From the NCBI RefSeq assembly GCF_000211815.1, contig NZ_GL890973.1, positions 103,777 through 120,230 of the forward strand: a stretch of DNA of 16,454 nt. Direction: 5' to 3'. Origin of the DNA: Moorena producens 3L (GTDB taxonomy: Bacteria; Cyanobacteriota; Cyanobacteriia; Cyanobacteriales; Coleofasciculaceae). The translations under genes were made by a program, and so were the position numbers. The notes below the pieces were generated by a model that made no database searches, was not told the DNA's origin, and saw only the letters and a program-made list of their open reading frames with translations. Below are positions 1,404 through 16,454 of the stretch, piece by piece (position 1 is the first letter of the stretch; every line of letters begins with the position of its first letter).

Positions 1404-3026
1404 TTATCCCGTAGTTGAAACATCTAACTCTTGCCTAAAGCTTAGCCATGCTCTCATAGCCTCTGGATTAGATGCTACTCCTTTTTGCATCAAAATCACA
1501 CCATCTTTAAAACCAATGATGCCATACTCGTTAGTCTTGGTGACCCGGTCAATCATGTTAACTAAAGAGCGCAACCGCTGACCATCATGCTTAAAGGCAA
1601 TTTGATAGCGTTGTAACCGCCATAAATCTGCGATCGCATAATCCACCTTCACCACCTCGCCATTATCATTGCGCAACTGTAAATCCCCTAAGCGGATGAT
1701 TTCCCGACGTCCTGACAGATGAGGGACTAGATAGGTAGTAGCTGAGACACTAGCATTTGCAGGAATCTGAGCCAGTAATGACCGAATCGACCCCACACGA
1801 GACCACTGTTGGGTTAAGGGCACATAGACGAAGGGTTGGTAGGAATCGGGAAGGAGGAAATAAAAGGTTCGATTTGGGCTAGAGGTAATAGTCAACACTA
1901 CCGCAAGGGTTAGACAAAAAATCCAAAAGCGCCGAAACTTAGACCTAGCCGAGATCACAGCTTGACTAAATTGGGTATGAGCTGACCACCAAAGTATCGC
2001 GCCATAGAATAGCCCAGGTACTACGGTCATCGCATAGCGGATATTAATCGCAAGCACTGATTGACCTTTACCCAACAGAAGTTTTAGCAAGGGAAATGCT
2101 GCGATAGACCAAGAAGCGGGAGCAATAGCTGGTATAAATGCTAATGGTAACCATTGACCTAATAAATACTGAATGGTGCCAAAAAAGGGAGTAAACAGTT
2201 CTACTAGTAAACGCCAAGGATTAGTCAGCATACCCTTAATAATTTCCAGAGTAGACGCCTCATCCCCATCAGCGTACTGACCAAAACGCTCGATCATGAA
2301 CCGTTGAGAAATATCTTCCGAAAATAGGGGCATAATTAGATTGGTCAAGACAAGTATGTAACCGAAACTGAGGGTACAAACTGCCAGACCAATGCGAGGG
2401 TAGCGCCGACTGACTATTAAATAGAATCCCACACCAAACAAACCTATCCCGGAATCTTCCCGTACAGCTAAAATCAAAATTGCCAGCAACCAAAACAGCC
2501 ACCACCAGCGTTTTTCCATAGCTAGCAGTAGCCCAAATACAAATAGCGGAATTTGGCAGATGTCATGGAAATTGGCTAAGGTCGGACCGAGAATAGCATT
2601 AGCACAGTAAAAGCTAACCGTAATCATTGCTGCTAACATCGGTTGCAGATACTGTCTAGCCAGGATATACAAAACTACACCAGCAGCTGTTACCAACGTT
2701 ACCTGCAAAACGGTTAGGGTAGCGGGAAATGGAAACAAAGCATATAACGGTAACCAAAGTAACAGGGCGGGAGTAAAATGTTGCCCTAATCGGTGGTAAT
2801 AGACATTTGGAACTTCCCCATTATGAACTACATTAGTAGACAGCTGGGATGAAAGAGTACTCTGAAAGAAGCTACCGTGAATTCCATTCCAGAAGACTTG
2901 ATTAAAAATTCCTTGATCGTAGGAAGAATAAAAAGTATAGTGTCGATGTAGAGTAAAAATTAAGGTGAATAAAAAAAATGCGATCGCCGCAGTAATAACA
3001 AGTTTTAACCCAGGTTTTTTGGTCAT
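1404..3026 (-). CDS. Polytopic integral membrane protein of 540 aa, possibly DUF2079-like or GT-C-like.
   Basis: Listed 540-aa ORF. It has a dozen or more hydrophobic segments (e.g. LVITAAIAFFLFTLIF and the Trp-rich MEKRWWWLFWLLAILILA). An AAGGA Shine-Dalgarno sits 5 nt before ATG 3026. The N-terminal SYDQGIFNQVFWN resembles the first-loop Asp motif of DUF2079/GT-C membrane proteins. The family assignment is from memory only. Confidence 0.65.
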   Translation of the reverse strand: MTKKPGLKLVITAAIAFFLFTLIFTLHRHYTFYSSYDQGIFNQVFWNGIHGSFFQSTLSSQLSTNVVHNGEVPNVYYHRLGQHFTPALLLWLPLYALFPFPATLTVLQVTLVTAAGVVLYILARQYLQPMLAAMITVSFYCANAILGPTLANFHDICQIPLFVFGLLLAMEKRWWWLFWLLAILILAVREDSGIGLFGVGFYLIVSRRYPRIGLAVCTLSFGYILVLTNLIMPLFSEDISQRFMIERFGQYADGDEASTLEIIKGMLTNPWRLLVELFTPFFGTIQYLLGQWLPLAFIPAIAPASWSIAAFPLLKLLLGKGQSVLAINIRYAMTVVPGLFYGAILWWSAHTQFSQAVISARSKFRRFWIFCLTLAVVLTITSSPNRTFYFLLPDSYQPFVYVPLTQQWSRVGSIRSLLAQIPANASVSATTYLVPHLSGRREIIRLGDLQLRNDNGEVVKVDYAIADLWRLQRYQIAFKHDGQRLRSLVNMIDRVTKTNEYGIIGFKDGVILMQKGVASNPEAMRAWLSFRQELDVSTTG

Positions 3027-3170
3027 TTTTCCTTTGTCATTTGTCCTTGGTATTAAGCTCCAGAAAGTTTCGCTTTTTTAAAACTACTCTTGTTTTCAAC
3101 ACACCCTCACGCTTATCGGGAAAAAGATCTAGCGTTTCTCATAGCTATGAGGTACAAATATTTTTTTACC

Positions 3171-3383
3171 TCTTGCCTCTTGCCTTCCCCTCCTGGGAGG
3201 GGTTAGGGGTGGGTTCCTCTTGCCTTCCCCTCCTGGGAGGGGTTAGGGGTGGGTTCCTCTTGCCTTCCCCTCCTGGGAGGGGTTAGGGGTGGGTTCCTCT
3301 TGCCTTCCCCTCCTGGGAGGAGTTAGGGGTGGGTTCCTCTTGCCTTCCCCTCCTGGGAGGGGTTAGGGGTGGGTTCCTCTTGT
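3171..3383. repeat. 40-bp tandem minisatellite: 5 perfect or near-perfect copies (3178-3377) plus partial flanks.
   Basis: Unit is tcttgccttcccctcctgggaggggttaggggtgggttcc, at 3178, 3218, 3258, 3298 and 3338. There is a single G>A change in copy 4 (3321). Each unit carries the near-palindrome CCCCTCC-TG-GGAGGGG and G-runs (GGGGTTAGGGGTGGG). It lies between the hybrid kinase stop (3443) and the membrane-protein gene start (3026). Confidence 0.95.
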
Positions 3384-3442
3384 CTGCTCCCTGCTCCCTA
3401 AAGCCCATAATTTTGACCTCATTAGTTTGAGAATTGCTATAG

Positions 3443-5005
3443 CTAATTGCGACTACTCCCGAGCCATTCCGAATCAGAACTTCTCACCTCAGACCTCTGA
3501 CCTCTGACTTCCCCATTACTTACTATGGGAATTTTAATCGTAAATGTTGTCCCAACGCCCACTTCGCTAGTCAGTTCAATCTCTCCCTGATGCTGTTCCA
3601 CACAGCGTTTCACAATCGATAGTCCCAGACCAGTCCCTTGAATTGTCCCCACATTTTTGGCTCGATAAAAAGACTCGAAAATTTTCTTTTGGTCTGCTTC
3701 AGCAATCCCAATTCCTTTATCCTGGATGCGGAACACAACCAACTGCTGTTTCAGATCACAAGTTAGGTTAAAGGTCACGATTTCATGAGAAGGAGAATAC
3801 TTCAAAGCATTGGTAAGCAGATTAGTTATAATGTAATGTATAAGTTTATCATCCATACAGACTTCTGTATAGACCCCGTCAGAGGTAAAAACAATCCGGT
3901 TGCGGCTGGCTTGATCTAGGCATAGTTCTGCAATTAAATCCTGGCAGAATTGCTCTAAGTTCATGGGAGTTGGAATAAATTCTAGCCGACCTACTTCAGC
4001 TTGACCGATTAGCAACACCTCTTCCATCAACTCAGTCATGCGCTCTACTGAAATAGTAATTCGTTTTAGATAACGCTGCTTTTGCTCCTGAGTGGCCAGA
4101 TTACCATAGCGCTTAAGTAATTCAGCGGCAGTTAGGATCACACTGAGGGGATTACGGAATTCGTGGCAAACGGTGGAAACGAACTGGGAGCGGAAATCTT
4201 GTATTTCTTGCTCTTTTGCTAACACCTGCTCTAACATTTCTGTTTGAGGTTCCTCGCTGATATCCCAAAACGCCAGCACTACTCCATTCACGTTTCCCAG
4301 TTGGTCTTTTAGGGGTGAAGCACTATTACCAACAGGAATTCGACCACCGTCCTTTGCGATCAAAGCGTTATGCTCGCCCAGATAGACAACTTGTCCGGTC
4401 TTGATCACTTTATCTAGGGGATACTTGACTAGATTACCGGTCAGGTCATTAACAATTGGGAACACTGAGGTCACATCTCGCCCCCATACCTCCGATGCCT
4501 TCCAACCAGTCAGAGCTTCAGCGGGAGCATTCATAAAGGTAATGGTACCTTGGGTCGTGGTAGCAATAACTGCATCATCGATAGAGTTTAAAATGGATGC
4601 CAACTGAGCTTGGCTGTTCTGCAACGACTGCTCCATCTGGTATTGCTGGAGAGCCATTTCAATGGCAACCCGCAAGTCTCTCTCGTTAAACGGTTTGGTA
4701 ACATAGCCAAAGGGTTGGGTAACCTTAGCCCGTTGCAAGGTATCTTCATCCCCATAGGCAGTTAAATAGACGATAGGAATACGTAAATGTTCACGAATTT
4801 GCCTAGCAGCAGTAATACCATCCATCTTGCCTTTGAGGAAAATGTCCATCAGCACTAAGTCAGGCTTAGTTTGAGCGGCTTTGGTAATGGCTTGAGAGCC
4901 AGATGAAGCAGTAGCTGATACCATATAACCCAGTTGCTTAAGCTGGCTAGCAATTGTCTTAGCAACAATAACTTCGTCTTCTACAACTAACACCCTGGTA
5001 ACCAC
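3443..5005 (-). CDS. Hybrid two-component protein: N-terminal receiver (REC), PAS, HisKA and HATPase_c sensor histidine kinase.
   Basis: 520-aa ORF. The receiver fold is seen in RVLVVEDE...PDLVLMDIFL (phospho-acceptor Asp in LVLMD). A central PAS-like segment follows. The H-box is CHEFRNPLSVI and the ATPase G-boxes are DKGIGI and GTGLGLSIV. The start is GTG at 5005, overlapping the upstream TAG stop. Confidence 0.9.
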   Translation of the reverse strand: MVTRVLVVEDEVIVAKTIASQLKQLGYMVSATASSGSQAITKAAQTKPDLVLMDIFLKGKMDGITAARQIREHLRIPIVYLTAYGDEDTLQRAKVTQPFGYVTKPFNERDLRVAIEMALQQYQMEQSLQNSQAQLASILNSIDDAVIATTTQGTITFMNAPAEALTGWKASEVWGRDVTSVFPIVNDLTGNLVKYPLDKVIKTGQVVYLGEHNALIAKDGGRIPVGNSASPLKDQLGNVNGVVLAFWDISEEPQTEMLEQVLAKEQEIQDFRSQFVSTVCHEFRNPLSVILTAAELLKRYGNLATQEQKQRYLKRITISVERMTELMEEVLLIGQAEVGRLEFIPTPMNLEQFCQDLIAELCLDQASRNRIVFTSDGVYTEVCMDDKLIHYIITNLLTNALKYSPSHEIVTFNLTCDLKQQLVVFRIQDKGIGIAEADQKKIFESFYRAKNVGTIQGTGLGLSIVKRCVEQHQGEIELTSEVGVGTTFTIKIPIVSNGEVRGQRSEVRSSDSEWLGSSRN

Positions 5006-6600
5006 TATTGTTGTCCTATTGCTTCTACAATTGTTGCTGTTGAGAATACTATTCTGAAAGCTGTGCCCTCGCTATGGCCCTGAAACATACTCCCGTCTAG
5101 TTGCTCCGTTGCCAGGTCATAAACTAACGATAATCCTAAAGACTGGGTATTACGCCAATCTAACTCTTCTGGTAAACCAACCCCATTATCTCGGACAATC
5201 AATTCAACCTGATCGTCCCCGCTATGGTGCAATTCAATGTGAATCTCACCATAGCGTCCATTGGGAAACCCGTACTTCAGGGAATTGGATACCAGTTCAT
5301 TGATGATTAGACCGCAAGGGATGGCCTGATCAATACTGAGGGAAATGGGTTCAATAGTCGTGTGCAACTGAATCCTATCGCTAGTTACTTGATAAGCTAC
5401 CAGTAAGTTCACCGCTAGGTTCTGGATATAATCCACTACATCCAGGTTGCCTATCACTGAGGCACCATAAAGTTTCTTGTGAATGAGAGCCATGGCTTCA
5501 AGGCGATGGCGAGCTTCCGACAGGTGTACTCGGGTTTGGGGTTGATCTACTGTCAGAGATGGCAAGTGTAGTAAGCTAGAAACAATTTGTAAGTTGTTTT
5601 TGACCCGATGGTGAATTTCTTTGAGCAGCACCTCTTTCTCAACTAGGGTAGCTTTGAGGTTTTCCTCGACCTGTTTGAGCTGTGTGATGTCGATGGCTAT
5701 GTTATGGATCCGAATTGGAGTGTTATTAGCATCTGTGAGGAGGTGAGCACGATGGCGAATCCAACTCACAGCTCCATCCGGTCGCAAAATTCTGTAGTCA
5801 ATATCTTTGGCACCAGTTGACAGCAGGGTTTGGTGTGCCAGTTCATAGGTTTCGAGATCCTCTGGGTGAACCACTGATTCCCACAGGCGTAAGTTTCCGA
5901 AGAACTCAGTGATACTGCGACCATAGACTTGCTCGGTAGCACTGTTAAGATAAAGCAGTTTGTCAATCGAAGGATCAAAAGACCATACCACTGCTTCTAG
6001 GGAAGTCAGAATACTCTCAAGACGTTCTTGGCTCAACTGCCAGGCATGTTCATTTTCCCCCAATTCTTCTTCAAACTGCTGATTGACAGCAACTTCCTGC
6101 TGCCATCGCTGATTAGCTGCCACTAATTCCCCTTCTTTTTGACTCAACTGTTGGTGTAAGTCTTCGACCTTAGTAACAATAGCAGAGAGGATGGCTGGCA
6201 TGGTGTGGGGGGTCACCACACGCACTACTTGACCTGGTTCATCCACTAGGGGTAGGTGACGAATCTGGTGTTGACGTAATCGGGACTCTACCAAAAAAAT
6301 GTCCGGTTTCGCTATGATGGGCAAGGTAATTAACTCTTGAGTCATCACATCAGCGATGGAAACCCCTGAGTTGACCATTCCGGCTGATGCTACTTTGACC
6401 ACATCCCGTTCTGTAAAAATGCCTACCAATTGCTGCTGCTGTACTACCAGCACATAACTCCTTCGAGTTTGATTCATCGTAGCGATCGCTTCCGTTACTG
6501 GAGTATCGGGAGCAATGGTGATCGGCTGCTGGTCGCAAGGAAAATTTACAATGGAAAGTTGACCAGAAATGCCATTTTTCAGGTAATCTTTAGCTTCCAT
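5005..6600 (-). CDS. Sensor histidine kinase with a CBS pair, PAS domain, HisKA_2-type phosphoacceptor and HATPase_c.
   Basis: 531-aa ORF. The N-terminal CBS pair reads ...GIFTERDVVKV...ELITLP.... A coiled-coil linker and a PAS segment (LEAVVWSFDP...) follow. The H-box EIHHRVKNNLQIVSSLL is typical of HisKA_2/HWE kinases. The ATP-binding site is NELVSNSLKYGF...VRDNGVGLP. Confidence 0.9.
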   Translation of the reverse strand: MEAKDYLKNGISGQLSIVNFPCDQQPITIAPDTPVTEAIATMNQTRRSYVLVVQQQQLVGIFTERDVVKVASAGMVNSGVSIADVMTQELITLPIIAKPDIFLVESRLRQHQIRHLPLVDEPGQVVRVVTPHTMPAILSAIVTKVEDLHQQLSQKEGELVAANQRWQQEVAVNQQFEEELGENEHAWQLSQERLESILTSLEAVVWSFDPSIDKLLYLNSATEQVYGRSITEFFGNLRLWESVVHPEDLETYELAHQTLLSTGAKDIDYRILRPDGAVSWIRHRAHLLTDANNTPIRIHNIAIDITQLKQVEENLKATLVEKEVLLKEIHHRVKNNLQIVSSLLHLPSLTVDQPQTRVHLSEARHRLEAMALIHKKLYGASVIGNLDVVDYIQNLAVNLLVAYQVTSDRIQLHTTIEPISLSIDQAIPCGLIINELVSNSLKYGFPNGRYGEIHIELHHSGDDQVELIVRDNGVGLPEELDWRNTQSLGLSLVYDLATEQLDGSMFQGHSEGTAFRIVFSTATIVEAIGQQ

Positions 6601-8605: not shown

Positions 8606-8688
8606 TGTTAACAGTTGACAGTTAACTGTTAACTGTTAACCGTTAACAAAATAGCAATTAACAATTAACAATTAACAATTAACAATAT
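8606..8688. repeat. Heptanucleotide STRR arrays: GTTAAC-containing heptamers (8606-8647) and AATTAAC x4.5 (8655-8686).
   Basis: tgttaacagttgacagttaactgttaactgttaaccgttaac followed by caattaacaattaacaattaacaattaacaat. It lies directly after the dxs stop. GTTAAC is itself palindromic, so the array can form hairpins. Confidence 0.9.
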
Positions 8689-8699
8689 ATCGAACTTAT

Positions 8700-9761
8700 A
8701 TGAACCCATCCACATACCAAGTTTATCCCGTTGTTTGGGAAAACGACCGAGTTATCCTCATTGACCAAAACCGCTTACCCGGCAAATATTCCATTGTAGA
8801 AATCAGCCGCTGTGAAGATATGGTTGAGGCGATTAAAACTATGATTGTTCGGGGAGCGCCAGCTATTGGAGTAGCAGCGGCTTATGGCATTTACCTTGGC
8901 GCAAGAGAGATTAAAACAAAAGAACGTAAGGCTTTCCTCGCAGAGCTTGAAATTGTAGCGCAACAGTTGCGGCAAACTCGTCCTACAGCCGTGAATTTGT
9001 TTTGGGCAATCATGCGGATGCTTAAAAATGCCTATGAAACGATCGGGACAGTAGAAGAGATTAAAGCTTCCTTACTTGAAACAGCTCAACAAATTCAGCT
9101 GGAGGATTTACAAACCTGTCAATCCATAGGCGATCGCGGATTAGAAGTATTACCGACAACCCCCGACAAACTCTGTCTTCTGACCCATTGTAATGCAGGA
9201 GCGTTGGCAACAGCTGGGTATGGTACTGCCTTGGGAGTGGTGCGTTCGGCCTGGCGGGATGGGCGATTAGCCAGATTATATGCTGACGAAACCCGCCCCC
9301 GCTTGCAAGGTGCTAGGTTAACGACCTGGGAATGCGTCGAAGAAGGTATTCCGGTTACTTTAATTACCGATAGCATGGCCGCCCATTGTATGAAACAAGG
9401 GCTAATTGATGCGGTTGTAGTGGGAGCTGATCGCATTGCTGCCAATGGGGATACGGCTAACAAAATTGGTACCTATAGTGTAGCTCTGATTGCTCAAGCT
9501 CATCAGATACCTTTCTTTGTGGCTGCTCCGATCTCAACCATTGATTTTCAGCTATCTACTGGCGAAGAGATTCCCATTGAAGAACGTCACCCCTCAGAAA
9601 TTTATCAGATTGGGGAGACAGTGATTTGTCCTCCTAAAGTGGAATTTTATAACCCAGCTTTTGATGTAACTCCAGCGGAGTTAATCACTGCCATTATTAC
9701 TGAAAAAGGCGCATTAGCCCCCAGTGAGCTGTCACAACTTAACATTAAGCAGTCAGTTTGA
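8700..9761 (+). CDS. mtnA: S-methyl-5-thioribose-1-phosphate isomerase (eIF-2B alpha/beta/delta family).
   Basis: 353-aa ORF. Family hallmarks are the N-terminal ...[22 protein letters not shown]..., then [17 protein letters not shown] and [19 protein letters not shown]. Confidence 0.93.
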
Positions 9762-9775
9762 AATCTATCTTGGTT

Positions 9776-9804
9776 TTAGGGATTAGGGATTAGGGAGTAG
9801 GGAG
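9776..9804. repeat. STRR heptamer array TAGGGAT/TAGGGAG x4.
   Basis: ttagggattagggattagggagtagggag immediately after the mtnA stop. Confidence 0.85.
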
Positions 9805-9805
9805 C

Positions 9806-9846
9806 GGTGCGACCCGTGGCGAATTTAATTACGGGTCAAGCGCACC
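9806..9846. repeat. Bulged stem-loop element, copy A of a duplicated about 25-bp core (copy B at 10134-10178).
   Basis: GGTGCGACCCGT-ggcgaatttaatt-ACGGGTcaagCGCACC. The 5' arm is an exact reverse complement of the 3' arm apart from a 4-nt bulge. The 25-mer ggtgcgacccgtggcgaatttaatt recurs exactly at 10134-10158. Confidence 0.8.
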
Positions 9847-9879
9847 GAGGGAGTGGGGAGTCGGGGTAATAAAATTGAA

Positions 9880-9909
9880 TGTACCTGATAAGGAGTGAGA
9901 AACGCTATA
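9880..9909 (+). repeat. Small dispersed dyad-symmetric repeat, about 30 bp, SDR-like. Other copies at 10206-10234 (+), 3129-3157 (-) and a partial at 10028-10044 (-).
   Basis: Consensus TGTACCTCATAGCTATGAGAAACGCTATA with palindromic core CATAGCTATG. Copies read 9880 tgtacctgataaggagtgagaaacgctata, 10206 tgtacctcataactgtgagaaacgctata, and the reverse complement of 3129-3157 tgtacctcatagctatgagaaacgctaga. Confidence 0.75.
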
Positions 9910-9976
9910 ACTGACCCAACTATGTTTGAGTCAGTTCCTTAGTTCAGCAACCTCTAAAGGATAAAGTCCGATAGCT

Positions 9977-10017
9977 ATGGGTGTTTAGATCATGGGTGTT
10001 TAGATCATGGGTGTTTA
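9977..10017. repeat. 15-bp tandem repeat atgggtgtttagatc x2.7. A second array of x2 lies at 10239-10268.
   Basis: atgggtgtttagatcatgggtgtttagatcatgggtgttta, and again at 10239 as atgggtgtttagatcatgggtgtttagatc. Confidence 0.9.
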
Positions 10018-10058
10018 TAGCAATTATCATAGCTATGAGGTACACAATTTCGGGATTT

Positions 10059-10116
10059 TAGGTAATAGGTAATAGGTAATAGGTAATAGGTAATAGTAAT
10101 AGGTAATAGTAATAGG
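10059..10116. repeat. STRR heptamer array GGTAATA (about 8 copies, two shortened to GTAATA).
   Basis: taggtaataggtaataggtaataggtaatagtaataggtaatagtaataggg. Confidence 0.9.
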
Positions 10117-10372
10117 GATGCGCTGCATCAAGAGGTGCGACCCGTGGCGAATTTAATTCTTAATGGTAAGAGCGCACCTAACAGGGAATCAGCTTCAAAG
10201 AATACTGTACCTCATAACTGTGAGAAACGCTATAGATCATGGGTGTTTAGATCATGGGTGTTTAGATCAAAGCCCTGCAGCTGTAGAACCGTCAACAGTC
10301 AACGCTCAACAGTGAACAAAACATGATCAATTAAAATATGCACATAAAATATCAAATAGCTAAGAGGAAATC

Positions 10373-10990
10373 GTGAACGGAAAACTTTCCACCCAACACT
10401 TAATTGTGTGCGGCTTAGGTGTAGCTATCCCGTTATTATACGCAGAGGTAGCCACCGCCGCCGCTGATCTAACCAATACTAGTGTAACTAACTGGAAAAA
10501 AATTCAGTATGAAAGCTTTCTGCCAAGGCTTGAAACACCAGAATTGTCCCCTCTCGAAGAAGTCAATCACTATCTGCGGCAAGAAGAAGATTTCTTTAAT
10601 AATACCCCTCGTTTAGTGATTAAACTAAGTGAGCGTCGTCTTTATGTTTATCGAGGAGATAAACTCGAAGCCAGTTATCCAGTTGCCATCGGTCAGCCTG
10701 GTTGGGAAACCCCTACAGGCAATTTCCAAGTGACACAGATGGTTCAAAATCCAGTTTGGAAGCATCCTCTAACTGGTGAAGTCGTTGCTCCAGGACCAGA
10801 AAACCCTCTTGGTCCAAGGTGGATGGCATTTTGGAGTGATGGAACAAACTACATCGGGTTTCATGGTACCAATGATGAGGAACTGGTGGGACAAGCAGTG
10901 TCTCACGGTTGCATCCGGATGCGTAATGATGATGTCAAAGCTTTGTATAACAGAGTGGCTTTGGGAACATCTGTAACAGTACAGGAATAG
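10373..10990 (+). CDS. L,D-transpeptidase (YkuD/ErfK family), secreted.
   Basis: 205-aa ORF. The N-terminus MNGKLSTQHLIVCGLGVAIPLLYAEVATAAA is hydrophobic and signal-peptide-like. The YkuD catalytic region is YIGFHGTNDEELVGQAVSHGCIRMRNDDV (His...SHGC Cys). Start is GTG at 10373, with AAGAGGAAA Shine-Dalgarno 4-12 nt upstream. Confidence 0.9.
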   Translation: MNGKLSTQHLIVCGLGVAIPLLYAEVATAAADLTNTSVTNWKKIQYESFLPRLETPELSPLEEVNHYLRQEEDFFNNTPRLVIKLSERRLYVYRGDKLEASYPVAIGQPGWETPTGNFQVTQMVQNPVWKHPLTGEVVAPGPENPLGPRWMAFWSDGTNYIGFHGTNDEELVGQAVSHGCIRMRNDDVKALYNRVALGTSVTVQE

Positions 10991-11129: not shown

Positions 11130-11147
11130 AAAACTCTTGCGCTTCTT

Positions 11148-11191
11148 GATGCAGTCGCTCATGGGGGAAACCCCCAAGACCGCGCTGCATC
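11148..11191 (+). promoter_or_regulatory. Extended stem-loop in the region upstream of ccdA (putative 5'UTR).
   Basis: GATGCAGtcgc-tcat-GGGGG-aaa-CCCCC-aagaccgcg-CTGCATC. A 7-bp outer stem encloses a GGGGG/CCCCC stem with an AAA loop. The motif GCGCTGCATC also occurs at 10121-10130. Confidence 0.4.
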
Positions 11192-11307
11192 GCTTACAAA
11201 GGGTGTGAGACTTTTGTCATGTCCTAACTGCCCTGGCGACTGCTATATCCCTGGGATTTGGCCACTCTACTTGAGGGGTTCAATACGCTAAAATTCAAGC
11301 AAACTGG

Positions 11308-12084: not shown

Positions 12085-12228
12085 AGCTATCAGCTATCAG
12101 CTATCAGCTATCAGCTATCAGTTATCAGCTATCAGCTATCAGTTATCAGCTATCAGCTATCAGCTATCAGCTATCAGCTATCAGTTATCAGCTATCAGCT
12201 ATCAGTTATCAGCTATCAGCTATCAGCT
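12085..12228. repeat. STRR heptamer array AGCTATC/AGTTATC of about 20.5 copies, organised as two identical 63-bp higher-order blocks.
   Basis: Units 1-9 (12085-12147) and 10-18 (12148-12210) share the same C/T variant pattern C-C-C-C-C-T-C-C-T. Two further units and a partial follow. Confidence 0.92.
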
Positions 12229-12348
12229 TATGCGCTACGCGCAATGGACTTTTCTGGTGACTTTCAATTATCATAAATCTCGAACTATTAAATTCTCTCG
12301 TTTGCGCACGCTACGGGAACGGCGCACGCTACGCTGGGTTTATTTTAA

Positions 12349-12397
<49 letters not shown>

Positions 12398-12464
12398 GCT
12401 ACTGAGATTCTTTTCATAAATCTGCTCATCCTATTCAGAAAACAAGTAATTAACTAGACTGAAT

Positions 12465-13907
12465 ATGACTTTAGAAAACTCATCAGATAACTCATCAGAT
12501 AACTCATCAAATAACTCATCAGATAACTCATCAAATAACTCATCAAATAACTCATCATTGAATAGTAGCAGTCGGTTGTGGCGTCGGTTAGTATCAGTGC
12601 TGGCTAACTTACGGTTAGCGATTATCTTGCTGCTTGCGATCGCATTCTTTAGCATCAGCGGTACAGTTATTGAACAGGGTGAATCTCTGGCATTTTACCA
12701 AGCTAATTATCCTGAAGACCCAGCGTTGTTTGGTTTCCTGAGCTGGAAGGTGTTGTTGCTGCTAGGGTTAGATCATGTCTACCGGACTTGGTGGTTTTTG
12801 TCCTTATTAGTGTTATTCGGTAGTAGTCTGACCGCCTGTACCTTCACTCGTCAATTTCCAGCTTTAAAAGCAGCCCGGAATTGGAAGTTTTACAAAGAAC
12901 CCCGCCAGTTTGGGAAACTTGCTTTGAGTGTAGAGTTGGACAAGGGGTCTTTTACTTCCCTCACTGAGTTGTTAGAGAAGCGGCGTTACAAGGTATTCCA
13001 AGAGGGGGATACTATCTACGCCCGTAAAGGAATTATCGGACGGATTGGTCCAATTGTAGTACATGCCAGTATGTTGATTATCCTGGGAGGGTCAATTTGG
13101 GGCTCAATGACAGGATTTACGGCTCAGGAAATGGTTACCAGTGGCAATACATTCCAAGTTAGAAACATTATTGATGCCGGTCCGTTTGCTTGGCCCCAAA
13201 TCCCCAAAGATTTGTCAGTGCGGGTGAATCGTTTCTGGATTGATTACACTCCATCCGGGGATATTGATCAATTTTACTCCAATCTGTCAGTTTTGGATAG
13301 TCAAGGTGAGGACATTGACCAAGAGACTATCTATGTGAATAAGCCCCTAAGATATCGAGGTGTCACCTTTTACCAAACGGATTGGGGGATTGCTGGGGTT
13401 CAGGTGCAGTTGAATAATAGTCCAATTTTCCAGCTTCCCATGGCACAACTTCCCACTAATGGTGAGGGACGGATTTGGGGCACTTGGGTTCCCACAAAAC
13501 CTGATTTAAGTGAAGGGGTATCCCTTTTAGCTAGGGATTTGCAGGGAACCCTGTTTGTTTATGATGGAACGGGTAATCTCGTTTCAAGTGTTCGTTCTGG
13601 TATGGGGATTAAGGTCAATGGGGTGATACTTAAAATTAAAGATGTCATCGGCAGCACTGGCTTACAAATTAAAGCTGACCCGGGTATTCCCTTTGTTTAC
13701 ACTGGCTTTGGTTTACTGATGTTAGGGGTACTGATGAGTTATGTCTCCCACTCTCAGATTTGGGCATTACAAAAAGGCGATCGCTTTTATATTGGTGGGA
13801 AAACCAATCGTGCTTTGGTCACCTTTGAACGGGAATTGATTGAGATTTTAGAGCAGGTGGGTGAATCATCCCAGACCGTAGAACCTTTACTAGCTAAATC
13901 TGCTTAG
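12465..13907 (+). CDS. ccs1: Cytochrome c biogenesis protein Ccs1/ResB (CcsB, System II).
   Basis: 480-aa ORF. The ResB-family N-terminal signature is [50 protein letters not shown]. It has a large soluble domain and the C-terminal [25 protein letters not shown]. It lies directly downstream of ccdA. The true start is uncertain: ATG 12465, or in-frame TTG/GTG after the repeat. Confidence 0.9.
12478..12561 (+). repeat. In-frame 12-bp tandem repeat AACTCATCA(G/A)AT x7 inside the 5' end of ccs1.
   Basis: It encodes (N)[26 protein letters not shown]. The variant order is G,G,A,G,A,A. The opposite strand reads [11 protein letters not shown]... Confidence 0.9.
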
Positions 13908-13958
13908 TATGACCGCGATCCAGCTTCCGAACAGGGGAGCCAGTGCCGCCAAGACGTG

Positions 13959-16454
13959 CTAGTTGTTCAATAGATACTTGTTCAATTCTGCAGTTAGACC
14001 CTCAACTTGAGGGGCTTTCATAATAGTGAAATGGTCTCCAGTAATAGTGTGAGTTTGGATATTACCTAGAACTAGAGAACCCCAGCCGTGGGTTGGGTCT
14101 TCAATTACTGCTGGGGAAGTTTGACTAGCATTTAGAAGGAGAACTGAACCTGGATAAGCTTGTGGTTGATAATAAGAGTTTGCTGCTAGATTTGCTTGAA
14201 AAACTTCCCATAAAGAACGCATTTGCTCTATTTCTAGGTCTGATGGGAATATCCCTTGCTGTTTGGCTTGCTCAAATAGATGCAAAACTTGCTGGGATGC
14301 TTCAAGTTGTCTAAGTGTTTCATGGGATATATCTAACTCTTGACCATAAAGACCTCCCAAATCTTGAGCCAATAGATTTACTATCATGGCTTGATCTATT
14401 TCTGAAGGTTTCCGAATTAAAGTGGGTGCATAACTGTCTATTAACGTTAGAAGAGCCACTGGCTCATTTTTAGCCTGTAATTGTTGTGCCATCTCATAAG
14501 CAATTACACCTCCAAAAGACCAGCCTATTAGGTGTAATGGTCCTTGGGAATGAATTGGCTTTATTGCCTCAATATAATGGGATGCCATCTCCTCAACAGA
14601 AGTTAAGGGTTGCTGTTGTCCATCTAAACCAAGAGATTGTAAACCATATACTGGATAATCTTGATCTAAATGACGAGCTAACTCTGCATAACACAGGACA
14701 TTACCACCACCAGGGTGAATAAAAAACAAGGGGGGTTGGTTTCCACTGGTTTTAATGGGAACTAATATGGAGTGAGATGTATCTACTGAACAATCCAGAA
14801 AGCTGGCTAACTGTTCAATGGTTGGACTTTGGAAAAGGGTTGCTAAAGGCAAATTGATTTGGAATTGTTGTTTAATCTGGGACATTAAACGGACAGCCAG
14901 TAGAGAATGTCCTCCGATTTCAAAGAAGTTGTCATGTATTCCTACATCTGGCACTCCTAGAACATTGGCGAAGATGTTGGCGATTATTTCTTCGGTTGGA
15001 GTACATGGAGCTACATATTCCTCCACCCTGCTGAAAACCCCATCAGGTGCAGGTAGGGATTTGCGGTCTACTTTGCCGTTTGGTGTTAAGGGCAGGGTGT
15101 CTAAGGTAACGAAGGCACTGGGCACCATATAGTCTGGTAGTTTCTGAAAGAGGAATTCTCGTAGTTGCTTGGTGCTTAGTGATTCGGACTGACTGACATA
15201 ATAGGCGACTAGGCGTTTGTGACCAGGAACATCTTCTGTTACAATTACTGCGGTTTGTTGGATGTGGGGATGGGTGGACAGTACTGATTCTATTTCCCCT
15301 AGTTCGATGCGGAAACCCCTGATTTTGACTTGGTTATCGATCCGACCGAGAAATTCAATGTTACCGTCTCGTCGGTATCTCGCCAGGTCTCCGGTTTTGT
15401 AGAGTCGTTCTGAAAAGGAACTACACAAGGGATTTGGGATGAATTTTTCTGATGTTAGTTCTGGGCGATTTAGGTATCCTCTGGCTAGTCCATCACCTCC
15501 TAGGTATAATTCTCCGGGTACGCCTATGGGTACTGGTTCCAGGTTTTTGTCTAGGATATAGATTTGGGTGTTGGCGATGGGGCGACCTATGGGGGGAAGT
15601 GATGACCAATCACTGGGAAAACCATTTAATTTAAAAGCACTGACCACATGAGTTTCTGTTGGTCCATACTGATTTTCTAGACGGCAATTAGACAGTTTTT
15701 CAAAAAAGTTCCTGAGGGTGGGAGTAATTTGTAACTGTTCTCCTGCGGTAATCAATTCACACAGTGTAGAGGGTAGACATTCCGGACTAGTCAAAGCACT
15801 AGTCGCTAAGTATTCTAGAGCCACAAACGGTAGAAAGAGTCTTTCGATACCTTGTTGTTTGAGCAATTGCAATAAGGCAGTTCCATCTCTTCGTACATCT
15901 TCTGGTATCAATACTAATGTTCCACCTGAACACCAAGTAGATAAGATTTCTTGGAAGGAGACATCAAAGCTTATCGGTGTAAATTGCCCAGTTTTTGTGC
16001 CGTATTTGGCAGAGGAGTTTTTCAACTGCCACAGGATAAGATTAACCAGAGGACTATGGTTCATGGCAACCCCCTTAGGTTGACCAGTAGAACCAGAAGT
16101 ATAAATCACATAAGCCAAATTATGTGAATGAACCCCAACATCAAGATTCTCCCCACTATATTGCTCTATGGCACCCCAATCACTATCCAAGCAAACCACC
16201 TGGGCTTGATTTTGTGGCAAAGATTCTAGTAACGACTGTTGAGTCAACAACACTTCAACACCCGAATCGCCCAACATATAACTCAGTCGTTGGTGAGGAT
16301 AATTAGAGTCCAGGGGTACATAAGCACCACCCGCCTTGAGTATCGGCCCAACAGTCCTACCACCATCTGTACAGAACGTTCCACACAAATACCCACCAAT
16401 ACTTCTGGTCCTACTCCTAAGTTTTGTAGGTGATGTGCTAGTTGATTCGCCTTT
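13959..16454 (-). CDS. Non-ribosomal peptide synthetase, terminal module (adenylation, PCP, thioesterase). The 5' end is partial and a −1 frameshift is present near 16344.
   Basis: Frame a (the 13959..16388 ORF) carries the A-domain cores: A2 LKAGGAYVPLD, A3 YTSGSTGQPKGV, A4 FDVS, A5 NQYGPTETHV, A6 GELYLGGDGLARGY, A7 YKTGDLARY, A8 GRIDNQVKIRGFRIELGEIES, A10 NGKVDRKSL. The PCP is FFEIGGHSLLAVRL (Ser codon 14904-14906). The TE is GWSFGG (Ser codon 14517-14519). Stop is TAG at 13961-13959. The listed 'M' at 16388 is really a TTG codon; the frame stays open to the window edge. Upstream of about 16344 the NRPS-like sequence (KANQLAHHLQNLGVGPEVLVGICVERSVQMVVGLLG) is in a different frame. Confidence 0.88.
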   Translation of the reverse strand, partial: KGESTSTSPTKLRSRTRSIGGYLCGTFCTDGGRTVGPILKAGGAYVPLDSNYPHQRLSYMLGDSGVEVLLTQQSLLESLPQNQAQVVCLDSDWGAIEQYSGENLDVGVHSHNLAYVIYTSGSTGQPKGVAMNHSPLVNLILWQLKNSSAKYGTKTGQFTPISFDVSFQEILSTWCSGGTLVLIPEDVRRDGTALLQLLKQQGIERLFLPFVALEYLATSALTSPECLPSTLCELITAGEQLQITPTLRNFFEKLSNCRLENQYGPTETHVVSAFKLNGFPSDWSSLPPIGRPIANTQIYILDKNLEPVPIGVPGELYLGGDGLARGYLNRPELTSEKFIPNPLCSSFSERLYKTGDLARYRRDGNIEFLGRIDNQVKIRGFRIELGEIESVLSTHPHIQQTAVIVTEDVPGHKRLVAYYVSQSESLSTKQLREFLFQKLPDYMVPSAFVTLDTLPLTPNGKVDRKSLPAPDGVFSRVEEYVAPCTPTEEIIANIFANVLGVPDVGIHDNFFEIGGHSLLAVRLMSQIKQQFQINLPLATLFQSPTIEQLASFLDCSVDTSHSILVPIKTSGNQPPLFFIHPGGGNVLCYAELARHLDQDYPVYGLQSLGLDGQQQPLTSVEEMASHYIEAIKPIHSQGPLHLIGWSFGGVIAYEMAQQLQAKNEPVALLTLIDSYAPTLIRKPSEIDQAMIVNLLAQDLGGLYGQELDISHETLRQLEASQQVLHLFEQAKQQGIFPSDLEIEQMRSLWEVFQANLAANSYYQPQAYPGSVLLLNASQTSPAVIEDPTHGWGSLVLGNIQTHTITGDHFTIMKAPQVEGLTAELNKYLLNN

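Follow-up and report, generated by a model that had tools for sequence, protein, structure and literature searches.

A probable stack of nested non-autonomous mobile repeats in the mtnA-ldt intergenic spacer of Moorena producens 3L

Introduction

The SDR4/5/6 elements of Nostoc punctiforme were reportedly described by Elhai and colleagues in 2008 as small dispersed repeats (SDRs), and to our knowledge the question of how repeats shorter than 50 nt move has stayed open since that work. Here we consider an intergenic spacer of the cyanobacterium Moorena producens 3L in which elements of this size class are packed together with larger ones. It belongs to a stretch of 16,454 nt from contig NZ_GL890973.1 (positions 103,777 to 120,230), hereafter the window, whose own coordinates are used throughout and whose forward (+) strand carries all spacer features listed below, and it separates, over 611 bp (9762-10372), mtnA (8700-9761, PF01008) from a gene for YkuD L,D-transpeptidase (ldt, 10373-10990). 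A first-pass annotation of the window had taken the spacer for a locally duplicated composite of a hairpin core, an SDR-like 30-mer and tandem 15-mers or, alternatively, for a duplicated small RNA gene. [quoted passage not shown] Directly observed are the boundaries of the elements, the duplicated TA, the empty sites in relatives and the fact that the TIRs are homologous to those of an IS630-family element.

The MITEs of this locus are most readily likened, by description and not by sequence comparison with Nezha or ISNpu3, to cyanobacterial MITEs of the IS630 family (Tc1/mariner superfamily) such as Nezha of Anabaena and Nostoc (Zhou et al. 2008, as summarised in PMC3184786), where the elements are also non-coding, possess TIRs matching a full IS, are flanked by a direct repeat, occupy many intergenic positions and occur as filled and empty sites between close relatives. 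The Moorena units measure 130-320 bp, with TIRs of about 29 nt and TA as the flanking repeat; unlike Nezha, they have an interior made almost entirely of tandem heptamer or 40-nt arrays, which differ between strains, and they act as landing pads for other small repeats. A variable tandem array inside a MITE is also known from Porphyromonas gingivalis, to judge by PMC4596501, on a MITE with a minisatellite, although host and IS family are unrelated in that case.

The hairpin repeat invites comparison with two classes of shorter elements. By description it agrees with Nostoc SDRs in measuring less than 50 nt, in forming a hairpin, in having no evident transposase and in occurring as near-identical copies in unrelated contexts, nested in other repeats and in heptamer arrays; it departs from them in length (41-46 nt versus 21-27 nt reported), and insertion into HIP1 is not seen. 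The Nostoc work is cited in PMC5861425 and PMC4390886, and according to the former SDR-like repeats were not found outside Nostocaceae. Repetitive extragenic palindromic (REP) sequences and REPINs, which go together with RAYT (TnpA-REP) proteins (PMC3116915, PMC3733652), form the other class. These too are homogeneous families of imperfect palindromes of similar size, mostly extragenic and numbering on the order of a hundred per genome, the Moorena figure being a rough extrapolation from sampled loci; in contrast to REPs, the Moorena hairpin ends without a GTAG or CGTC tag, and in contrast to REPINs it mostly occurs singly and not as inverted doublets.

Results

Repeats of the mtnA-ldt spacer

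The repeated sequences noticed by the first-pass annotation are real and sit where it had placed them. The 25-mer GGTGCGACCCGTGGCGAATTTAATT is exact at 9806-9830 and 10134-10158 (none of 200 shuffles gives two matches), and GCGCACC ends both copies, at 9840-9846 and 10172-10178; the 30-mer core GTGAGAAACGCTATA recurs without mismatch at 9895 and 10220, and the 15-mer ATGGGTGTTTAGATC forms arrays at 9977-10021 and 10239-10268. Matches of all three exceed the expectation from shuffled sequence. Heptamers make up three arrays, TTAGGGA (9776-9803), TAGGTAA (10059-10116) and AACAGTC (10287-10318), rather than the four families of short tandem repeats counted before, the AGGGAGT/GGGGAGT run at 9848-9866 being a continuation of the first array beyond a hairpin. 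An inverted copy of the 30-mer is indeed present, not as the partial match seen earlier at 10028-10044 but complete, with 29 nt at 10016-10044. Outside Moorena genomes the repeats under study hardly recur, PLSDB plasmids had no blastn match to the spacer, and the MtnA protein of the window is encoded identically in four NCBI assemblies.

MITE B splits a minisatellite

The clearest of the elements is MITE B, a complete unit of 215 bp (10018..10232) between TA dinucleotides at 10016-10017 and 10233-10234, delimited by its TIR pair, by excision and by empty sites. From left to right it consists of the left TIR (to 10044), GGTAATA heptamers (10059-10116), a relic GATGCGCTGCATC (10117-10129), the hairpin in its variant b, a linker and the right TIR (from 10206); the TIRs, 10016-10044 and 10206-10234, are 79% complementary over 34 nt. 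The junctions read ATGGGTGTT-TA-[10018-10232]-TA-GATC, and deletion of 10018-10234, that is, of the 215-bp element with one TA, leaves exactly five perfect ATGGGTGTTTAGATC units. Two relatives, cited like all sampled loci by number, lack the element. In the conspecific strain GCA_010672795 (L001) the spacer is otherwise 100% identical, minus 232 bp (= 217 + 15), and has an uninterrupted array of four units; L081, which belongs to another Moorena species and has an MtnA of 95% identity, holds a contiguous array of three units and no MITE B in a spacer of 309 bp. Since excision restores the array and those of L001 and L081 are uninterrupted, a single array, divided by insertion, accounts for the two 15-mer "modules". 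Its left part is 9977..10017, with the TA target at 10016-10017 (array analysis, excision), and its right part is 10235..10268 (comparison with L081, excision). The 15-mer is confined to this locus within the sampled loci; it was rejected as a dispersed repeat on that ground and is regarded as a local minisatellite.

The 30-mer and its parent element

A 29-30-mer TIR profile, searched by nhmmer over about 470 kb of Moorena sequence, gave 29 copies, five of them within the window. At its stop codon a DDE_3 transposase fragment (...NWFTHCCYCTS*) of Moorena sp. SIO3I8 (L067) overlaps with one of these copies, and the database homologues of the fragment all carry PF13358 and are in some cases named IS630 family transposase. 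Another locus (L079) contains an IS of about 1.02 kb that bears both TIRs, TATAGCAAGTCTCTAACTCATAAGGTACA and TGTACTTCATGAGTTAGGGAATTGCTATA, is flanked by TA on each side and encodes, in an interrupted reading frame, HTH_32 and DDE_3 fragments matching NF033545; the right end of this element is found again at L080. The transposase fragments match PF13358, PF13565 (HTH_32) and NF033545 with E = 1e-15 to 1e-21, scores that fall under the full-length cut-off because the proteins are fragments. They thus combine a DDE_3 catalytic domain, an N-terminal helix-turn-helix (HTH) domain and a match to the NCBIfam IS630 model. Judged by its overlap with the transposase stop codon in L067 and its position at both ends of the L079 element, the 30-mer is the TIR of an IS630-family IS and not the SDR-like repeat for which it had been taken. 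In L067 (7384-7897) a G5A3C5 repeat carrying the GGTGCG hairpin interrupts the transposase gene between ...YSPEFSP and IENFWSK..., which places the hairpin between the two halves, so that the IS with the TIRs used by the MITEs is itself inactivated by small repeats.

Because the 30-mer forms the ends of an IS630-family IS, the units bounded by it are MITEs of an IS630-family element. Inverted pairs of it often enclose heptamer arrays, and units of the order TIR-heptamers-TIR were found in the window (3128-3441 and 10016-10234) and in L041, L048, L050, L060, L029 and L009; they are multi-copy, non-coding, 130-320 bp long and have interiors of heptamers. TA flanks the members in L041, L048, L060 and L029, where it is inseparable from the TIR without an empty site. 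Such anatomy supports well the movement of the MITEs with TA duplication by an IS630-family transposase, which we infer to be active and to work in trans. The unit at 3128-3441 is a second MITE with the same IS630 TIRs, and its interior consists of 5.2 copies of a 40-nt tandem repeat, CCTCTTGCCTTCCCCTCCTGGGAGGGGTTAGGGGTGGGTT; at the equivalent position in L001 the same TIRs surround CCTGCTC heptamers, an interior entirely unlike it, so that what lies inside a MITE turns over even among strains that are near-identical.

MITE A, an older relic

The left part of the spacer (9762..9909) is the relic of another member of the same TIR family, MITE A, with an architecture as in L045, L048 and L009: subterminal AATCTATCTTGGTTTTA, G-rich heptamers, subterminal GGGGTAATAAAATTGAA and a right TIR. 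The left subterminal sequence is comparable with L048 and L009, the right one with L045. The right TIR (9880..9909) is the 30-mer TGTACCTGATAAGGAGTGAGAAACGCTATA with one inserted base, recovered by nhmmer with E = 0.019 and homologous to the IS630 TIRs of L079, L080 and L067. On its other side the relic abuts the mtnA stop codon; no left TIR was detected by nhmmer, and the 3′ end of mtnA, inspected by eye, has no convincing similarity to one. L081 carries the relic in diverged form and without a hairpin, from which it follows that MITE A is older than the split of the two Moorena species. Three further segments are shared with L081 and complete the spacer: a non-repeated stretch of 67 nt (9910..9976), conserved there as ancestral spacer sequence and including a small local hairpin at 9909-9936; the ancestral AACAGTC array (10287..10318); and the conserved AT-rich leader of ldt (10319..10372), in which an AAGAGGA ribosome-binding site stands 5 nt before the GTG start.

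The hairpin repeat: copies, variants and fold

The pattern GGTGCGACCCGTGG-N(6-36)-GCGCACC, scanned against one genome for each of 185,579 species, matched at least 74 stretches, at least 60 of them in four Moorena genomes; the 14 non-Moorena matches among those listed stem from unrelated genomes, mostly of high GC content, and seem fortuitous, their interiors being unrelated. A profile search gave 75 matches in the 470 kb, only nine of them degenerate. About 12 further copies, met incidentally in some 430 kb, put the abundance roughly at the order of 10^2 copies per genome, an estimate biased by clustering. Dispersal, which the first-pass annotation had suspected, is thereby established for the hairpin core and, by its own profile, for the 30-mer. 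The repeat measures 41-46 nt and has the ends (A/C)GGTGCG...CGCACC(T/G); its 5′ arm is almost invariant, including ten bases outside the positions fixed by the pattern, and its 3′ half comes in about 20 variants drawn from a few blocks, such as ACGGGTCAA, CTTAATGGTAAGA, CTTAATGGGTCAA, CGCC(A/T)ACGGAAA and AATTAGATGCGGAAA.

The two copies of the spacer represent different variants. Variant a (GGTGCGACCCGTGGCGAATTTAATTACGGGTCAAGCGCACC, 9805..9847) has a C...G closing pair, lies as an insertion within MITE A's GGGAG heptamer array and has six identical sampled copies (window, L026, L048, L060, L070 and L073). Variant b (GGTGCGACCCGTGGCGAATTTAATTCTTAATGGTAAGAGCGCACC, 10133..10179), with an A...T closing pair, lies inside MITE B; its 3′ half, CTTAATGGTAAGA, is identical in eight sampled copies, those of the window, L013, L021, L031, L053 and L061 being identical throughout and those of L047 and L078 one base off in the 5′ arm. 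Since A and B are two variants, each of them multi-copy, hairpin B has not lost the ACGGGT arm that it was thought to lack.

Variant a folds better than shuffled sequence both as RNA (z = -2.7) and as DNA (z = -3.3), and across the variants stability as DNA ranges from z = -5.5 (CGCCTACGGAAA) to z = -0.8 for variant b, which is no better than shuffled. In 59 of 65 copies (A-T in 43, C-G in 16) the bases on either side of the core are complements of each other, against 36.6 expected (Fisher p = 3e-14), and this covarying closing pair means either an extended stem or two subfamilies.

Contexts and spread of the hairpin

The hairpin is met within heptamer arrays (gggagC[hp]Gaggga), within two other hairpin repeats, G5A3C5 (L076, L028, L073 and L054) and C6/G6, and within a MITE TIR (L009, L005 and L036). 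Residence in heptamer arrays is much like that reported for SDRs, as the first-pass annotation had remarked, though the heterocystous host that it had in mind does not apply, Moorena being a non-heterocystous marine filamentous cyanobacterium. Both orientations occur; 56 of 65 copies lie outside long open frames and nine within, two of the latter being in frame in the 1290-codon open frame of L042. This frame (M. bouillonii PNG, 1538-5410) has a periodicity of 582 bp and contains, in frame, the two hairpins, translated as CGATRGEFNSPTESAP, and a C6/G6 repeat; it may be a repetitive protein gene in which small repeats are tolerated, or a pseudo-ORF. Another dispersed hairpin repeat, GATGCAGTCGCTCATGGGGGAAACCCCCAAGACCGCGCTGCATC, occupies 11146-11196 of the window, is matched 24 times among the sampled loci of Moorena and often hosts the GGTGCG hairpin, and a stump of it, the GATGCGCTGCATC of MITE B, adjoins hairpin B at 10117-10129.

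Hairpin A is missing from the orthologous heptamer array in L081, and in three true orthologous pairs of sites the variant is the same in all. Change of the 3′ half in situ at orthologous sites was considered and rejected, the pairs that differ sharing only short paralogous flanks (40-160 nt, 78-95% identity). A relation to the ends of an IS607-like element (L001, near ldt) was dismissed for want of similarity, and a RAYT-like gene between inverted hairpins in L076 was likewise rejected, this interval holding two ordinary long open reading frames and no transposase; by their translations we take them to be chlL and chlN. No RAYT gene was identified, a genome-wide RAYT search not being part of the work. 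As a short imperfect palindrome, high in copy number and mainly extragenic, the repeat is like a REP, but neither of the REP tags is present at its ends; it also falls outside the definition of a classical MITE, being 41-46 nt long instead of more than about 50 bp and having flanks that are complementary (A...T / C...G) rather than directly repeated.

In its behaviour the hairpin is like a mobile or copied element of very small size, and it has evidently spread both alone and as a passenger in units of the MITE B type (L029, L053). By analogy with REP/RAYT and with IS200/IS605 derivatives, our working guess is that it may be moved by an enzyme of the HUH/Y1 type recognising single-strand-DNA hairpins, together with passive hitch-hiking in MITEs. 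A bolder possibility, which we regard as rather doubtful, is that of a genus-specific self-propagating element of SDR type, the first outside Nostocaceae, in which the 5′ arm GGTGCGACCCGTGGCGAATTTAAT is constant, the 3′ half-arms can be exchanged, the GCGCACC end does not vary and the closing pair covaries; such an element would insert without target duplication into heptamer arrays and other hairpin repeats, by neither classical transposition nor RAYT, and would persist in frame in L042. A literature search for descriptions of Moorena repeats found nothing relevant, and the 41-46-nt hairpin repeat appears to be undescribed so far and the only part of the locus with some novelty.

Neighbouring spacers

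Heptamer arrays are not confined to MITEs, since the dsbD-resB spacer has arrays without flanking IS630 TIRs, AGCTATC in 20.6 copies (12085-12228) and GCTGACC in 6.7 copies (12349-12395). The dxs-mtnA spacer (8608-8686 in the window, 2915-2975 in L081) is a heptamer array on GTTAAC palindromes in inverted arrangement, which gives a spurious Rfam match to MIR6288 (E = 0.028) and whose unit sequence is unlike between the two Moorena species. At 12473-12557 the 12-mer AGATAACTCATC is repeated seven times in frame at the predicted N-terminus of a ResB-like open reading frame, where it encodes (SSDN/SSNN)n; the frame has 480 aa in the window and 476 aa in L001, which suggests copy-number variation or a mis-called start codon. 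The ldt-dsbD spacer of L001 contains a 1.79-kb IS607-like element with a serine recombinase and TnpB/OrfB_IS605 (12347-14138, inserted at about 11277 of the window), which is missing from the window.

Discussion

The order of events may be pictured as follows. The ancestral spacer would have consisted of MITE A, which was old, of IS630 type and truncated on its left, together with some 67 nt of unique sequence, a single 15-mer minisatellite, the AACAGTC array and the ldt leader. In the lineage of the window a 41-nt hairpin of variant a, with its C...G closing pair, would then have entered the G-rich heptamer array of MITE A. Finally MITE B, a 215-bp member of the same family already bearing hairpin variant b and the stump of another hairpin repeat, would have been placed by cut-and-paste, through an IS630-family DDE transposase, into a TA of the 15-mer array, which duplicated the TA and split the array into two apparent modules.

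Several points weigh against this reconstruction. The L067 copy, the sole transposase seen in a Moorena genome, is disrupted; no intact IS630 transposase with these TIRs was found in the genome of the window, at which no dedicated search was directed, and the full-length IS with both TIRs (L079) comes from another assembly. As regards the hairpin, the sampling pattern fixed 21 of its bases, which inflates the apparent homogeneity of the family; neither a target-site duplication nor a clean insertion boundary was found for it, and since heptamer numbers differ between species L081 offers only an approximate empty site for hairpin A. As regards MITE B, the polymorphism of L001 may just as well reflect a loss through recombination of the 15-mers on either side, and with four units rather than the five of a simple empty site L001 alone does not prove recent transposition.

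This last alternative has a chance only slightly short of even: L001 would have lost its 232 bp secondarily, when the 15-mer half-arrays recombined or slipped, and would not represent a site that had never been filled. Besides the missing unit it draws on the half-arrays around MITE B (41 + 34 bp), which, at a distance of only 232 bp, match exactly and in register over up to 26 bp, and on the fact that no footprint is seen in L001, though excision by cut-and-paste usually leaves one. Against it, the spacer of L001 is otherwise 100% identical and the strain differs elsewhere by its mobile-element content, the IS607-like insertion being an example, which makes recent element traffic plausible either way; the more distant L081, moreover, shows that an uninterrupted array is the ancestral state.

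An improbable alternative for the hairpins is that they are REP-like cis elements kept for a host function, such as stabilisation of mRNA 3′ ends, binding of gyrase or nucleoid proteins, or insulation of mtnA from ldt, with an origin by transposition being secondary. The predominance of copies outside long open frames (56 of 65), the position of hairpin A 44 nt past the mtnA stop codon on the sense strand and the marked homogeneity of the family in the profile search would fit such a role. Yet the hairpin has no T-tract and is missing from the same position in the sister species (L081), weakly folding variants are multi-copy too, and copies interrupt other elements and are also situated in open reading frames. 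For this particular spacer there is no sign of a dedicated cellular function.

Less probable still is a duplicated small structured non-coding RNA gene, as the first-pass annotation had offered for consideration, in which the hairpin core or the whole composite would be transcribed as a functional RNA. The better-than-shuffled fold of variant a and the covariation of the closing pair speak for it, but 9762-10372 has no Rfam match at E <= 1, no sigma-70-like promoter or intrinsic terminator was found in 9600-10500, variant b, the hairpin of copy B, folds no better than shuffled sequence, and there is no fold common to the variants. The repeat exists, besides, in some 10^2 copies in both orientations, some of them in transposase pseudogenes, TIRs and open reading frames, and both hairpins are missing from the orthologous spacer of the other Moorena species (L081).

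Least credible of all is the local tandem duplication of a unit of about 140-210 bp, with hairpin, 30-mer and 15-mer copied in place and later diverged, which has in its favour the same order and orientation of modules in both composites and the exact 25-mer and 15-mer matches, but which is contradicted by linkers between hairpin and 30-mer that align at chance level (48.5% identity versus a shuffled mean of 49.6%), by unequal spacing of the modules (the first two recur after 328 and 325 nt, the 15-mer arrays after 262 nt), by the inverted TIRs and TA duplication of MITE B itself and its clean excision from a single array, by the 118-nt right part of B being 92% identical to L053 and L029, two M. 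bouillonii loci with flanks unlike the window and unlike each other, and only 71% to A, and by the presence of A without B in L081.

The mtnA-ldt spacer is thus an ordinary, if intricate, product of nested mobile repeats, and the first-pass annotation was right in spirit in seeing dispersed, mobile-looking small repeats in heptamer arrays, its errors concerning the duplicated composite and the nature of the 30-mer. For Moorena, a genus rich in natural products whose genomes are large and hard to assemble, this means that intergenic mosaics can be parsed into IS630-type MITEs with heptamer arrays, the GGTGCG hairpin and the G5A3C5 hairpin, and that they are not to be read as duplicated regulatory units or RNA genes. 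Because these elements differ between near-identical strains, they are useful as strain markers and a likely cause of assembly breaks. If it is true that the hairpin spreads by a mechanism of its own, Moorena would provide a second, independent system for the movement of repeats below 50 nt.

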